Assembly (NCBI GenBank): GCA_963704755.1
Contig: OY969938.1
Coordinates: 3,180,001 to 3,212,000 of the forward strand
DNA: 32,000 bases
Direction: 5' to 3'
Origin: an uncultured Chloroflexia bacterium
GTDB lineage: Bacteria > Chloroflexota > Anaerolineae > Anaerolineales > Anaerolineaceae
The notes beneath the pieces were generated by a model, which was not told the DNA's origin, did no database searches, and saw nothing but the letters and a program-made list of their open reading frames with translations. Numbering within the stretch: the first letter of the stretch is position 1; the number at the start of each line of letters is the position of its first letter. This document shows positions 2,655-27,168 of the stretch, piece after piece. The position numbers were made by a program, and so were the translations under genes.

Positions 2655-2729
2655 GGATAGAAATACCGAAATTATGGTGTTTGAGGAGGCGTAGCCTCCT
2701 CAAACACCATAATTTCGGTATTTCTATCC
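2655..2729. repeat. Perfect 36-bp-arm palindrome (P1), central GTA
   Basis: GGATAGAAATACCGAAATTATGGTGTTTGAGGAGGC gta GCCTCCTCAAACACCATAATTTCGGTATTTCTATCC. The right arm contains the VWA gene stop codon (2724-2726). No U-tract follows on the transcribed strand. Confidence 0.9.
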
Positions 2730-3521
2730 AATACTGCCAGTATTCATCTCTTGCCGCACGGTCTGGTAGAGCGATTCGGCGCGCAGTTCGGTGAGCGAAT
2801 AGCAGGGGGCTTCCAGGTGTTCGGCCAGCGCCTGGGCCAGGCCCTGGTCGAAGGCCAGGTGTTCCATGTTGATGACCACACAGTGAGTATGCCCCTCGGC
2901 GATCTGGTGGGCGATGCGGTAAGCCTCCTCCTGCGGGGGCAGCGAGCCGACCGAGACGTTGCCGGCGCCATCGGTCAAAACGATCAACAGTGGCATTACG
3001 TCCGGGTGGAGCAGTTTTTCGCGGTCGATCACCGCGTGGGCCAGCCCCAGGCCGGCCGAAAGGGGTGTCTTGCCGCCGACAGGGATATCCGCCAGGGCGC
3101 GCTGGGCCAGCAGGACCGAGTTGGTCGGGCGCAAGACCAGCGTGGCGCGGTCCTTCTGGAACACGATCAGCCCAACCCGGTCGCGGCGCTGGTAAGCGTC
3201 GGTCAAAAGCGAGAGAATGGCCCCCTTGGTGGCCTGCATTCGTTCGGCGACGGCCATCGACCAGGAGGCATCCACCAGGAACAAAATCAAATTGGAAGCG
3301 CGGCGCACGCGCACCTTGCGCATGTAATCGGAAGAATGGACCGAAAATGCGACCTTCTTGCGGTCCTCGAGACGCTGGTTTTGAAATGGCGCGGCTGCGC
3401 GCAGGGTCGCGTCGAAAGCCAGGTCGTCGGGTTTGCCGGCGGATGGGCGCGATTGCACATAGCGGCCACGTTTACGCTCGGTATGAGTGCGCGAGCGCCG
3501 TCCGGCAGCCCGCCGCACCAT
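2724..3521 (-). CDS. VWA-domain protein resembling the C-terminal half of Mg/Co-chelatase subunit D (ChlD/BchD)
   Basis: 265-aa ORF with a basic N-terminus (RRSRTHTERKRGRYV). MIDAS-type motifs are present: DASWS (DxSxS), GGKTPL and LTDGAGN. The start is uncertain. The same frame is open upstream to 3722 with no ATG/GTG/TTG, and ATG 3521 lacks a clear SD. Confidence 0.85.
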   Translation of the reverse strand: MVRRAAGRRSRTHTERKRGRYVQSRPSAGKPDDLAFDATLRAAAPFQNQRLEDRKKVAFSVHSSDYMRKVRVRRASNLILFLVDASWSMAVAERMQATKGAILSLLTDAYQRRDRVGLIVFQKDRATLVLRPTNSVLLAQRALADIPVGGKTPLSAGLGLAHAVIDREKLLHPDVMPLLIVLTDGAGNVSVGSLPPQEEAYRIAHQIAEGHTHCVVINMEHLAFDQGLAQALAEHLEAPCYSLTELRAESLYQTVRQEMNTGSIG

Positions 3522-3649
3522 TTTATCCAGGGGGGTATCCAGGCGGCGCGGGTCGAAGGATTGGCCGATCTTAACGCGTTCGCCACCGTCCCACCACTGG
3601 CCGGTTTGTTGACTAAATACGTCATCCCGCCCAGGTGTGGGTTGACCTT

Positions 3650-3712
3650 GAGGAAGCGTTTCCTGGGCCGCCGCTCCCTCGTTCAGACTTTTTTTTGCTG
3701 GGCCGTTTCCTC
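3650..3712 (-). promoter_or_regulatory. Candidate programmed -1 ribosomal frameshift (or slippage) cassette
   Basis: Read on the minus strand, the elements are: GAGGA (3712-3708), an 11-nt gap, the slippery run A AAA AAA G (T8 at 3689-3696 on the plus strand), an 8-nt spacer, and a 9-bp stem GAGGGAGCG/CGCTTCCTC (3680-3672 pairing with 3658-3650, one G.U, 13-nt loop). The zero frame stops at 3685-3683. The -1 frame continues into the VWA ORF. Confidence 0.4.
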
Positions 3713-4801
3713 TTCGATTGGATCAGACTCTTCGGACCGGCTGCCGGTGCTGCTGCCACCCTGGAGCTGTTCGATGCGGTCTTGCAGCTCCTCCATGGTC
3801 ACTTCCTCTTGCTGGAAGGGCCCGCGGCGAATGCGGTGCGGCAGGGCCAGTTCGGCGGCCAGGGCGATATCCCGCCCGTTGATGGCCGTGCGTCCTTCGA
3901 AGGCGGCCTGGGCGCGGGCGGCTTTGAGTATCACCAGGTCGGCGCGGTGGCCATCCACCTGCAGCGAGGAGGTCAATTGGGCAATCGAGAGCAGATCACG
4001 GCTGGCGTAAGTTACTTTTTCGATCAGCGCACGTGCCTTGTCAATGCGCTGGGAGAGGTCGTTTTCGTGAGGCAGCCATTCTTCGCGGAAGTGTTCCGGG
4101 TTGGCCTCGTAGGCCAGGTTGCGCTCCATAATTTGGACCCGTTCGCGGGCATCGCGGATCCCATAGATTTCGACCGAAAGAGCAAAGCGGTCCAGCAACT
4201 GGGGACGCAGGTCGCCTTCTTCGGGGTTCATGGTGCCGACCAGGATGAAACGGGCCGGGTGGCTGAAAGAGATGCCCTCGCGCTCGACGATGTTCATGCC
4301 CATGGCAGCCGAATCGAGCAGCACATCTACCACATGGTCGTCCAACAGGTTGACCTCGTCGATGTACAGCAGGCCGCGGTTGGCGGCCGCCAGAACGCCG
4401 GCGTCGAAATGGCGCTCGCCTTTCTGGATAGCTTTTTCGATATCCAGAGTACCGACCACGCGATCTTCGGTGGCCGAGATAGGCAGGTTGATGAAGGGGG
4501 TTGAGCGGATGCTGACCGGCAGTTCCTCGCCGCGGGCCACTCGTTCTTTACACTCGGTGCACAAGGCGTTCGGGTTGTCCGGGTCGCAGCCAAAGCGGCA
4601 GTCTGCCACCACCTTGACGCTGGGAAGCAAAGCCGCCAGGGCGCGCGCGGCCGTCGATTTGGCCGTCCCGCGCTCGCCGCGGATCAGCACACCGCCAATA
4701 CGCGGGTCAACCGCGTTCAATACCAGGGCGCGTCGCATGCGCTCCTGGCCAACAATTGCAGTAAAGGGATAGATCACAGGCATAGTCGTGTCGTCATCCA
4801 A
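3683..4801 (-). CDS. ChlI/BchI-type AAA+ ATPase (Mg- or Co-chelatase subunit I family)
   Basis: Matches ChlI end to end. Motifs include IYPFTAIVGQERMRRALVLNAVDPRIGGVLIRGERGTAKST (Walker A), LYIDEVNLLDDH (Walker B), VEREGISFSHPARFILVGTMNPEEGDLRPQLLDRF and VDGHRADL. It also has an acidic C-terminal extension. The track start at 4801 is TTG; ATG at 4783 (MPVIYPF) is an alternative. Confidence 0.93.
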   Translation of the reverse strand: MDDDTTMPVIYPFTAIVGQERMRRALVLNAVDPRIGGVLIRGERGTAKSTAARALAALLPSVKVVADCRFGCDPDNPNALCTECKERVARGEELPVSIRSTPFINLPISATEDRVVGTLDIEKAIQKGERHFDAGVLAAANRGLLYIDEVNLLDDHVVDVLLDSAAMGMNIVEREGISFSHPARFILVGTMNPEEGDLRPQLLDRFALSVEIYGIRDARERVQIMERNLAYEANPEHFREEWLPHENDLSQRIDKARALIEKVTYASRDLLSIAQLTSSLQVDGHRADLVILKAARAQAAFEGRTAINGRDIALAAELALPHRIRRGPFQQEEVTMEELQDRIEQLQGGSSTGSRSEESDPIEEETAQQKKV

Positions 4802-13131: not shown

Positions 13132-13521
13132 GTTTGGGTCCTTTATGATTCTTCTTCGGGCTCGTGTAAAAAAGTCTACGAATTGGAGGGATGCGCGCAG
13201 AGCGCAATTCTGGGACTCCCTCAAGTTTGGGTTTAACCCTTTAGTGGATCAAATACCCACTACCAATATTATAGAAACATCCGCTAAATTTCTATCCTGG
13301 GATTCCCAACAAAAATAAAAGGTTCAGCGCCCTTGCGGAAAATTACCCGGCCTGGCCGGGTAAACCTGCTATAATTATTGGGCTCTGATCGAACATGGGG
13401 AGATTTTTATTTTGAGGTTGGCGGGCTCGCAGCTCGTGACCCAAAAACAGGTGTTTTCCCAGTGTCGCCAGGGATCCCACATTGATTTATTCTTATCTAA
13501 TTTGTGCAAGGGATTTGGCCT

Positions 13522-14031
13522 ATGCGCCGAGAAATATTGACCTGGAACGATGTTGATAAACTAATCGATCACCTTCTGCCCCAGTTCGAAGGAGAATTCG
13601 ATTCGATGGTTATGATCACCCACGGGGGCATCATCCCCGGCGGGATGCTGGCTGAAGCCATGAAAATGGATAACATCCTGACCGCATCGGTGGATTTCCC
13701 GGCCGAGATGGAGCAGGATAGTGAAAAAGAAAAAACGCGCTGGCTGGCCTGGCCGAAATTTCTCCAGTTCCCCGAAACCGACCTGCTGCGGAACCACCGC
13801 ATTTTGGTCGTGGATGACGTGTGGGGCTCTGGCCGCACGATCACGGCGGTCAAGAACCGGGTGAGCAGCGCAGGCGGATCGCCTTTTACCTGCGTACTGC
13901 ACTTCAACCCTTACCGCAACCTGTTCGGCACCGCCCGGCCGGATTATTACGCTGCTATCACCGATGCGCATATTGTCTATCCCTGGGAAATGAACCGCGG
14001 CCCACATACCATCTTGCTGCGGGATTTCTAG
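13522..14031 (+). CDS. Type I phosphoribosyltransferase, Gpt (xanthine-guanine PRT)-like
   Basis: PRPP-binding loop ILVVDDVWGSGRTI. The layout is Gpt-like: TWNDV..., THGGIIPG, and a C-terminal IVYPWE. AGGGA lies 8 nt before ATG 13522. The track start at 13504 is GTG. Confidence 0.85.
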   Translation: MRREILTWNDVDKLIDHLLPQFEGEFDSMVMITHGGIIPGGMLAEAMKMDNILTASVDFPAEMEQDSEKEKTRWLAWPKFLQFPETDLLRNHRILVVDDVWGSGRTITAVKNRVSSAGGSPFTCVLHFNPYRNLFGTARPDYYAAITDAHIVYPWEMNRGPHTILLRDF

Positions 14032-14113
14032 GGCACAATTAACAGATATTTTTCGACCTGGCGGGTAAAAAAAAAGTAAACACACCAATTTAAAAACGTC
14101 TGCCAAGGGTAAA

Positions 14114-14171: not shown

Positions 14172-14756
14172 CTATTGACCGGCTTCCACCGGTTTTGGCG
14201 CAAATACTTTCCCGGGTTGCCAGGGCGTTCCCAGGGCGGGCAGAATGAAATGATCCAATCCCAGCCAACCGGCCGTCTTCCAGGCCAGGATCAAGAAGAC
14301 CGACAGGGTGAACAGCACCGGGTTGATGCTGGCCGAACCGGCCATCATAAAATTCCAGTTCATGAAGCCGCCGAAGAATGCCGCGATGCCGGTGAACAGG
14401 CCCAAAATCATCGCGATACCGATCAGTAGCTCACCAGCTACAATAATCTTGGAAAACCAGGTATAGGCATTGGCATTCAGCATGGCCTGCAGGAAATCAC
14501 GGTACCAGGCAAAAGCAATCGCCGGATGGCCGGCATCGGGAATAGCCACGGCGCTGGTCCAGAAACCTTTTAATGCCGTTCCGGTCTGAGTCCAGGCGGG
14601 ACTTTGTAGTTTTTCGATACCCGCGGACAGCCAGGAATAACCCACATACACACGGGCGATCAACCACAGCCAACTCCAGCGGGGGTCGCCAAATAAGGAT
14701 TTGGCGAAGGATGGATCCTCAAGACCTACAACTTTTTGTTTTGCTTGTGCAGCCAA
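14172..14756 (-). CDS. DoxX family membrane protein
   Basis: 194 aa with four hydrophobic segments and a DoxX-like pattern (RVYVGYSWLSAGIEKL...ELLIGIAMILGLFTGIAAFFG). TTG start with a perfect AAGGAGG 5 nt upstream. Confidence 0.85.
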   Translation of the reverse strand: MAAQAKQKVVGLEDPSFAKSLFGDPRWSWLWLIARVYVGYSWLSAGIEKLQSPAWTQTGTALKGFWTSAVAIPDAGHPAIAFAWYRDFLQAMLNANAYTWFSKIIVAGELLIGIAMILGLFTGIAAFFGGFMNWNFMMAGSASINPVLFTLSVFLILAWKTAGWLGLDHFILPALGTPWQPGKVFAPKPVEAGQ

Positions 14757-26308: not shown

Positions 26309-26590
26309 TATAAACTCCTCTTGTGACCCTATATTCATCAACTGATAAGATGCGATAGAAAGGGATCCAGCCAGGGTACGTACTGCCCGCCTGGAAGGGG
26401 AGATTTAATCAGAGGAGAACCTCGTCATACTGGCGATCGCTTTGCAGCGCGCCTGGCATTTCTATGGCCAAAGCAGTGGAACTAACCATATAATGCCGTC
26501 ATTTTTACTCTTATTTGGGGAGGTTTTCACTACGATTATATATTTAGTTTCCCGATGGTGTCAACCCATAATTTACAACACTGCAAAGTC

Positions 26591-26994
26591 GTGTACAACA
26601 TTTCGCCAGTTGCGAGCGATTTTTGCGAAGCAATCTCCCTATTGGCCAGTGTTGATATTGCTTCGTCGACAAATGACGCCTTCTCAACGACAATAAGGGA
26701 AATGAAGCGGATCGGCCCGGTCTCCAGACCGAGGCCGCTCTTATCGGCTGGCAGGATAGTTGCTTTGATTCAACAAGCGTGTATGTTTGTCATTGCGAGC
26801 GATTTTTGCGAAGCAATCTCCCTATTGGCCAGTGTTGAGATTGCTTTGTCGACAAATGACACCTTCTCAACGAAAATAAGGGAAATGAAGCGGATCGGCC
26901 CGGTCTCCAGACCGAGGCCGCTCTTATCGGCTGGCAGGATGGTTGCTTTGATTCAACAAGCGTGTACGTTTGTCATTGCGAGCGATTTTTGCGA
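26591..26994. repeat. Tandem repeat, about 2.2 copies of a 183-bp hairpin-containing unit
   Basis: The anchor TTGCGAGCGATTTTTGCGA occurs at 26610, 26793 and 26976. Units contain the GCGAAGCAATCTC...GAGATTGCTT(C/T)G hairpin and CGGTCTCCAGACCG. Six substitutions separate units 1 and 2. Confidence 0.9.
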
Positions 26995-27168
26995 CCCAGC
27001 ACTTGCGGTACCCCTGTCACAGACTGCCAGGACTGCGTGGGCAGGTGAGCAATCTCAACATTGGCAGGCAGTCACAATGGCCGGCGCTGCCGAAGGTGCC
27101 ATGCCCTGGCAGAAGCGGCCAGGGCAATGACAAAAGGGTGCAGGCGCTGGCAAAGGACAGGGTAGAAT

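Follow-up and report, generated by a model that had tools for sequence, protein, structure and literature searches.

A frameshifted chlD gene with a candidate -1 ribosomal frameshift cassette in an uncultured Anaerolineaceae bacterium, and its conservation across Anaerolineae

We describe a pair of overlapping open reading frames (ORFs), one coding for a ChlI/BchI-like AAA+ protein and the other for a VWA-domain protein, in 32,000 nucleotides of DNA from an uncultured Chloroflexia bacterium (contig OY969938.1, positions 3,180,001 to 3,212,000; this whole stretch is referred to hereafter as the window), and compare them with chlD genes of the frameshifted type (fs-chlD) known from other genomes. 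In 2013 Antonov et al. (NAR) reported a cluster of 23 Mg-chelatase genes with -1 frameshifts at poly-A sites, found in archaea and in bacteria, the genus Herpetosiphon of the Chloroflexi among them, and annotated as pairs of neighbouring genes; three members placed in E. coli reporters gave 63% (A11), 40% (A9) and 10% (A7, A_AAA_AAA) shifting (PMC3711429). Kuznetsov, Milenkin and Antonov (2022) described fs-chlD genes in which an AT-rich slippery site is followed by a structure downstream, naming Anaerolinea, Levilinea, Longilinea, Ornatilinea and Brevefilum among the carriers, and pointed out that several of these Anaerolineae lack the large chelatase subunit as well as the chlorophyll and B12 pathways, so that the function of the I+D complex there was flagged as unknown (PMC9227772). 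An earlier note on this DNA, made from the letters alone, implied that a single chelatase locus making both subunits would be new, which these two papers contradict (PMC3711429, PMC9227772). The arrangement was already published in 2013, 2020 and 2022, including from the same family, Anaerolineaceae, and the locus in the window is a further member, probably an orthologue of the published genes. The 2020 study (Antonov, Mol Biol Evol, doi 10.1093/molbev/msaa081), cited in PMC9227772 and PMC10732093, reportedly developed the frameshifted chlD genes further.

The likeness to fs-chlD extends to every part of the locus: a ChlI-like AAA+ ORF followed by a VWA ORF in the -1 frame, an A-rich site within the overlap, a downstream structure, two chelatase subunits proposed to come from one mRNA, overlapping genera, and annotation as two adjacent genes. 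We see no essential difference. The canonical chelatase motors ChlI/ChlD (BchI/BchD) and CobS/CobT are built from the same parts, with a small AAA+ subunit and a medium subunit in which an acidic/Pro-rich linker joins an AAA+ module to an integrin-I/VWA domain that carries a metal ion-dependent adhesion site (MIDAS), but here one recoded gene stands in place of two, and no cobN, chlH (large subunit), second chlI or tetrapyrrole genes were found within the 32-kb window. Nor is a separate D-type AAA+ gene visible in the window, as the earlier note had also remarked. In the published scheme fs-chlD genes are sorted by genome context, with a stage-8 type that lacks a separate small-subunit gene and/or is partnered with cobN, an intermediate type, and a stage-1 orphan type that has no large subunit.

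Two further systems are comparable in mechanism. E. coli dnaX, the source of tau and gamma, has a Lys-codon heptamer with a Shine-Dalgarno (SD)-like element ~10-14 nt before it and a hairpin 5-9 nt after it, all three of which are present in the window, and it likewise yields two products with a common AAA+ N-terminal module from one gene; related species, moreover, switch at A-runs from one mechanism to the other, ribosomal frameshifting or transcriptional slippage, as with the A9 of Thermus thermophilus dnaX (PMC1088944). The differences are that the shifted product is shorter in dnaX (gamma) and longer at the chelatase locus, that the heptamer is A_AAA_AAG in dnaX and A_AAA_AAA here, and that the AAA+ module matches the DnaX model only marginally (E = 3.4e-4). 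The cassette works like that of dnaX but is not a dnaX member. In insertion sequences of the IS3/IS1 family (OrfA/OrfAB), and in those that use A8/A9 transcriptional slippage (Baranov et al. 2005, PMC1088944), the zero frame also gives a short product, and the fusion comes from a -1 event at A_AAA_AAA/G or at an A-run; there, too, the run keeps its place from one homologue to the next but differs in length. Unlike these, the gene in the window codes for a cellular AAA+/VWA protein rather than a transposase, with no terminal repeats or mobility features around it.

We consider it likely that the two ORFs form one recoded gene, an fs-chlD, which would give a short I-type and a long D-type subunit by way of a ribosomal -1 shift. 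The features of the locus, all on the minus strand, are listed in Table 1. The ChlI-like ORF is taken to start at ATG 4783, with an alternative TTG upstream at 4801, and its 3' end reads CAG CAA AAA AAA GTC TGA; the exact 366-aa product is present in public collections as a called gene. The VWA frame lies at -1 relative to it, overlaps the ChlI-like ORF by 40 nt and has no stop from 3722 until that of the VWA ORF at 2724. Its first ATG, GTG or TTG is ATG 3521, with none between the upstream stop (3725-3723) and that codon, and no SD sequence is found before ATG 3521, where the preceding sequence is CCCCCTGGATAAA. The earlier note had described the end of the ChlI-like ORF, the open frame and the missing start in just these terms, had likewise seen no convincing SD, and had correctly placed the three candidate stimulatory features, namely a GAGGA 11 nt upstream of the run, an 8-nt spacer, and a 9-bp stem (one of whose pairs is G-U) closed by a 13-nt loop. 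The 5' arm of the hairpin, 3680-3672 (GAGGGAGCG), pairs with the 3' arm, 3658-3650 (CGCUUCCUC).

Table 1. Positions of the recoding features within the window
Feature	Position	Strand	Details
ChlI/BchI-like AAA+ zero-frame ORF	3683..4783	-	366 aa + stop; 5' part of the frameshifted chlD
A8 run, shift site	3689..3696	-	slippery heptamer A_AAA_AAA at 3695-3689, in zero-frame phase
Zero-frame TGA, ends small subunit	3683..3685	-	one codon past the slippery site
SD-like GAGGA, candidate upstream stimulator	3708..3712	-	11 nt before the A-run
Hairpin, candidate downstream stimulator	3650..3680	-	minimum free energy structure; 8-nt spacer (3688-3681) from the run
-1 frame continuation: linker, WWxGG...PRRLDTPLDK segment and VWA	2724..3689	-	321 aa + stop

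A -1 shift at the heptamer would yield a protein of 686 aa if translation starts at ATG 4783, or of 692 aa if it starts at TTG 4801, the latter being the length of ~692 aa predicted earlier. The predicted junction reads ...AQQKK|SLNEGAAAQ..., and the corresponding trans-frame peptide would be ...AQQKKSLNEGAAAQETLPQGQPTPGR, with SLNEGAAAQETLPQGQPTPGR preceded by ...TAQQKK; the expected masses are ~40 kDa for the zero-frame product and ~75 kDa for the fused one. Only two A or T runs of at least 8 nt occur in the 32 kb, the A8 at the junction and one that is intergenic, and a run is kept at this junction in 77 of 78 species; because of this, the A8 is more than a chance occurrence. The other long homopolymer, an A9 on the plus strand (14067-14075), sits between a plus-strand ORF (13504-14031) and a minus-strand DoxX-like ORF (14172-14756) and breaks no gene.

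The fused product resembles a chelatase medium subunit. Its residues 5-664 cover the whole of the TIGR02442 profile for a putative cobaltochelatase (positions 1-640 of 641), with a score of 771.4 bits that falls narrowly under the cut-off of this hypothetical-equivalog model (779.45), and with TIGR02031 (BchD-ChlD) over residues 14-672 on positions 1-607 of 608, where the score of 429.6 does not reach the equivalog cut-off of 499.55. The fused product is full-length with respect to a ChlD-type profile, and the junction therefore falls inside what elsewhere is one polypeptide with the subunit-D architecture, as the earlier note had proposed. The ChlI-like ORF scores 425 bits against TIGR02030 (BchI-ChlI); the N-terminal part lies near the solved ChlI structures 8osf (354 bits), 6l8d and 1g8p, and at the C-terminal end the match is to the integrin-I domain of BchD (2x31_A). 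Pfam assigns Mg_chelatase, AAA_5, AAA_lid_2, VWA_2 and VWA to the products. The VWA (integrin-I-like) domain carries the MIDAS motif DxSxS as DASWS, invariant in an alignment with 25 relatives, and an acidic/Pro-rich linker runs across the junction (...EESDPIEEETAQQKK|SLNEGAAAQETLPQGQPTPG), so that the AAA+ module, linker and VWA domain with MIDAS of a medium subunit are all present in the fused product.

The sequence features that characterise an fs-chlD gene are found at this locus: the upstream ORF is a ChlI/BchI homologue and the downstream ORF a homologue of the ChlD C-terminal part, together making a full-length medium subunit; they overlap on the same strand and a single -1 frameshift would join them; A_AAA_AAA provides an in-phase A/T-rich slippery site within the overlap; and both a downstream RNA structure and conservation of the signal in orthologues are seen. 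The Walker A motif reads GERGTAKST (~4660-4690, minus strand; residues 35-43 of the ChlI-like ORF), with Ala in place of the second conserved Gly of ChlI/BchI (GxxGxGKS). This Ala is kept in 69 of 72 relatives and is therefore a family trait of this fs-chlD clade, whose AAA+ module would serve as both I and D.

An obvious alternative is that two separate genes are present, with the VWA protein starting at ATG 3521, or by translational coupling or reinitiation near the ChlI stop, and no fusion being made. Public annotation does call two genes, of 366 and 265 aa, the latter covering only 3521-2724, a pair of ChlI and VWA-only proteins is conceivable, and gene callers find some start in many relatives. 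Those called starts are scattered and often absent, however, relatives have I, L, V, S or T in place of the Met of ATG 3521, and ATG, GTG or TTG codons are usually absent from relatives between the run and the conserved WWxGG. At the same time the segment before ATG 3521 (WWxGG..K..G..FxPRRLDTPLDK) is conserved as protein in the alignment with 25 relatives, and the 56 codons upstream of that ATG hold near-invariant residues (W32, W33, G35, G36, F45, P47, R48 and D55). Because the linker is conserved as protein while the Met and the called starts vary, these nominally intergenic codons must be translated, and without a conserved initiation site; their earlier identification as a ChlD linker is borne out. 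Two separate genes would also leave unexplained the poly-A at 77 of 78 loci and the fact that the fusion matches a model of one protein over its full length, and would have to do without any start codon in the VWA frame ahead of ATG 3521, with its missing SD. We regard two independent genes as very unlikely.

Conservation of the junction was followed in a scan of related loci with one genome per species, which gave at least 80 loci, all from Anaerolineae, of which 78 had both parts. They come from metagenome-assembled genomes (MAGs) of Bellilinea, Longilinea, Levilinea, Leptolinea, Brevefilum and Anaerolinea and are independent assemblies made with different technologies; no identical locus occurs among the matches listed, the top match being 80% (a Bellilinea sp. 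MAG). An A7-A10 run lies at the homologous junction in 77 of the 78 loci (A7 in 8, A8 in 2, namely the window and L001, A9 in 48 and A10 in 19), and every A-run junction offers an in-phase A_AAA_AAA or A_AAA_AAG, in many cases an A_AAA_AAG that the stop follows at once. In 73/78 loci (70 scored automatically, with L016, L040 and L046, miscalled owing to upstream breaks, added by eye) the VWA frame stands at -1 to that of ChlI, and in the other five at +1. A zero-frame stop follows 1-8 nt past the run in 65 of the 70 automatically scored -1 junctions. The proposal that a -1 shift at the A-run fuses the ChlI-like ORF to the linker and VWA domain is in this respect well supported, with run, frame and stop all conserved over ~78 Anaerolineae species.

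The sole junction without an A-run, in L058 (~2965-2990), reads ACC CCC CCA AAA GTG TAA and keeps the -1 relation; it offers an in-phase C_CCA_AAA tandem-slippage heptamer, and also a C7 run. The five +1 loci (L003, L006, L010, L013 and L020, with the junction at ~2950-3040 in each) all have A9 or A10 and, if real, need a +1/-2 event or transcriptional slippage. Four of them are MAGs of the MFD series, and the contig name of L020 is SPAdes-style (NODE_..., cov 11). We take the MFD series to be nanopore-based, in which case homopolymer miscalls would be possible in these loci.

The same comparison bears on whether the split is an artefact of assembly or sequencing, the true genome having A9 and an ordinary in-frame chlD. 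Homopolymers are error-prone, A9 at this position would put both ORFs in frame, and fused ChlD-type genes exist in other Chloroflexi (PMC3711429). Against this, five of the six closest relatives, in independent assemblies, share the A8, its phase and the -1 relation, and the sixth (L084) has A7, also at -1; a -1 shift is needed in 73 of the 78 species-level assemblies; and among the 120 best homologues of the linker and VWA part (70-85% identity) all are called as VWA-only proteins of 280-340 aa and none as a fused protein (0/120). Since the independent assemblies agree, and since a stop beside the run would be pointless in an in-frame gene, we set this explanation aside as exceedingly improbable; the caveat of the earlier note, that an A9 had been read as A8, is effectively excluded by the assemblies of the relatives. 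That note also spoke of two other genes broken at homopolymers, which we could not reproduce: no other homopolymer-associated break was found in the 32-kb window at runs of at least 5 nt at same-strand ORF junctions.

The candidate stimulators were compared in the six nearest relatives among the matches listed (L001, L081-L084 and L086, from NCBI, Logan and JGI assemblies). All six carry the cassette, with a zero-frame Q(Q/P)KK[A/V]-stop and A8 (A7 in L084). GAGGA stands 9-14 nt before the run in 7/7 members of this closest clade (the window and the six), despite variable flanks in the acidic linker, and a 9-10-bp hairpin begins 7-8 nt past the run in all six relatives. In the seven-sequence alignment the stem is 91.4% paired, compared with 39-56% when the 3' arm is slid, and two stem pairs show compensatory G-C to A-U changes, one of the 3'-arm changes being non-synonymous (Thr to Met). 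Support for the hairpin thus comes from its conservation and covariation in relatives, not from single-sequence folding, and we read the covariation as real but thin. The earlier note had treated the A-run, the zero-frame stop and the stem as features that might be conserved or co-vary in orthologues: the run (77/78) and the stop (65/70) are conserved throughout, while the stem, with its two compensatory pairs, is kept in the closest clade and not family-wide. A conserved structure common to the family was considered and rejected, as single-sequence folding over 65 loci gave a mean z of -0.5, with 22% of loci below -1.64, and only the A7 and A8 clades have such a structure.

When loci are grouped by run length, the best hairpin beginning 3-10 nt past the run has a mean of -17.2 kcal/mol for A7 and -16.5 kcal/mol for A8, but -6.2 kcal/mol for A9 and -7.6 kcal/mol for A10, and an SD-like core at -22..-9 is found in 5/9, 6/6, 7/48 and 6/15 of these loci, respectively. 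The difference in hairpin strength between short and long runs is significant by a Mann-Whitney test (p = 4e-6), which treats phylogenetically non-independent loci. A neighbour-joining tree places the short-run loci in two separate clades with unrelated hairpins (CGCCGG/CCGGCG versus GAGGGAGCG/CGCUCCCUC), the second of them, with A7, having its own GC-rich hairpin at a 6-nt spacer. Run length and stimulators would thus trade off, short runs (A7/A8) having a strong hairpin and often an SD-like element and long runs (A9/A10) mostly neither, a relation that is only suggestive because it rests on two independent events.

Our proposal for the locus is as follows. Most ribosomes would stay in the zero frame, stop at the TGA and release the 366-aa ChlI-like AAA+ small subunit. 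Some would slip by -1 on A_AAA_AAA while tRNA-Lys occupies both the P and the A site, promoted by pairing of the SD-like GAGGA with 16S rRNA and by the 9-bp hairpin 8 nt downstream, and would then read through the acidic/Pro-rich linker into the VWA domain, giving a 686-aa ChlD-like medium subunit. Both products would share one AAA+ module and, on the model of ChlI/ChlD and CobS/CobT, presumably combine into one mixed I/D motor, the I/D ratio being set by the efficiency of the shift. We infer that the shift is ribosomal rather than transcriptional, and so, too, how efficient it is, how its products assemble and what they do biochemically.

The alternative that has to be weighed most seriously is transcriptional slippage as the main route, in which RNA polymerase would add one A at the A8 in a fraction of the transcripts, and ribosomes reading the resulting A9 mRNAs would make the fused protein in a single frame without shifting. 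Most orthologous junctions have A9 (48) or A10 (19), lengths typical of productive slippage (PMC1088944), and reporter efficiency of the chelatase sites climbs with run length, from 10% at A7 over 40% at A9 to 63% at A11 (PMC3711429); the five +1 loci could also be served by a heterogeneous slippage population. In the window and its clade, however, the run is short (A8, or A7), and two classical ribosomal stimulators are found at canonical spacings, conserved while the linker around them varies. The separate A7 clade has a distinct GC-rich hairpin of its own at a 6-nt spacer, L058 has C_CCA_AAA in place of the run (though its C7 could also slip), and an A7 site gave 10% shifting in reporters (PMC3711429). 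In the clade of the window, short run and conserved stimulators together favour a ribosomal event, and slippage as its main mechanism seems to us unlikely.

Several points weigh against a ribosomal shift, and some of them against the part that the stimulators are given in it. Slippage would yield an identical fused protein, and slippage at A8 is productive in some bacteria (PMC1088944). The covariation of the stem is confined to one lineage, L084 and L086, and on the sequence of the window alone the hairpin is unexceptional (z = -2.0 over 81 nt, z = -0.4 over the 60 nt past the run). The SD-like element sits in a Glu-rich linker (GAG/GAA codons) and SD-like cores (GAGG/GGAG) at -22..-9 occur in only 24/78 loci across the family, an enrichment nonetheless over the 2-11/78 in control windows of the linker. 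Most A9/A10 junctions are without a strong hairpin (mean best dG of -6 to -8 versus -17 kcal/mol for A7/A8), the five +1 loci depart from the -1 relation, and for this A9/A10 majority slippage is at least as plausible as a ribosomal shift. Finally, the reporter measurements all come from taxa outside Anaerolineae and were made in E. coli. For the locus in the window we nevertheless hold a ribosomal -1 shift to be the better explanation.

A wider reading would have one recoding junction switched within a single class between two regimes, a ribosomal SD and hairpin cassette with A7/A8, arising at least twice with unrelated hairpins, and A9/A10 junctions without stimulators where transcriptional slippage would be the main mechanism, with the I/D complex working without a large subunit and maybe in a non-chelatase function. 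This is tentative, and we think it rather doubtful. If true, the two-regime switching would be a dnaX-like interchange of mechanism, densely sampled in ~80 species. The apparent run-length/stimulator trade-off, the question of ribosomal shift versus slippage and the role of an I/D complex that lacks a large subunit are all incremental or already flagged in the literature.

The neighbours of the fs-chlD gene within the window include a small Thr/Pro-rich ORF, an M42 peptidase, an LCP protein, a heavy-metal P-type ATPase and a GGDEF protein. On the minus strand the fs-chlD gene is followed, over 1044-2584, by the small ORF (131-148 aa), which combines an N-terminal hydrophobic segment with a Thr/Pro-rich tail, and then by the M42-family peptidase. 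This order is kept in four close relatives (L081, L082, L083 and L085); L084 and L086 have a ClpB-like gene downstream of the VWA gene instead. Directly at the end of the VWA ORF, from its last sense codon and stop onward, lies a perfect 36-bp inverted repeat with a 3-nt loop (2655-2729; GGATAGAAATACCGAAATTATGGTGTTTGAGGAGGC / complement), AT-rich compared with the genome and followed by no T-run. Neither the six closest relatives nor any of the other loci fetched have it, which suggests an insertion specific to this lineage, either an unusual terminator or a palindromic element of small size. Further away, at 26610-26975, a 183-nt unit occurs twice in tandem at 97% identity and has an imperfect inverted repeat of 38 nt inside it; the duplication falls inside a mechanically listed 191-aa ORF (26555-27130), in all probability no genuine gene.

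Reporter validation and the range of taxa are, like the phenomenon itself, already in print, and the value of the present locus lies mainly in a correction of annotation, with no new question opened. Like essentially all of its relatives, several thousand in number, the locus has been entered in the databases as a "magnesium chelatase" and a "VWA domain-containing protein"; all of them should be annotated instead as one recoded gene with two products. The carrier lineage has itself been flagged in the literature for a complex without a known partner or pathway. More generally, the locus would add another clear case in which the subunit stoichiometry of an AAA+ complex is set at a recoding site.

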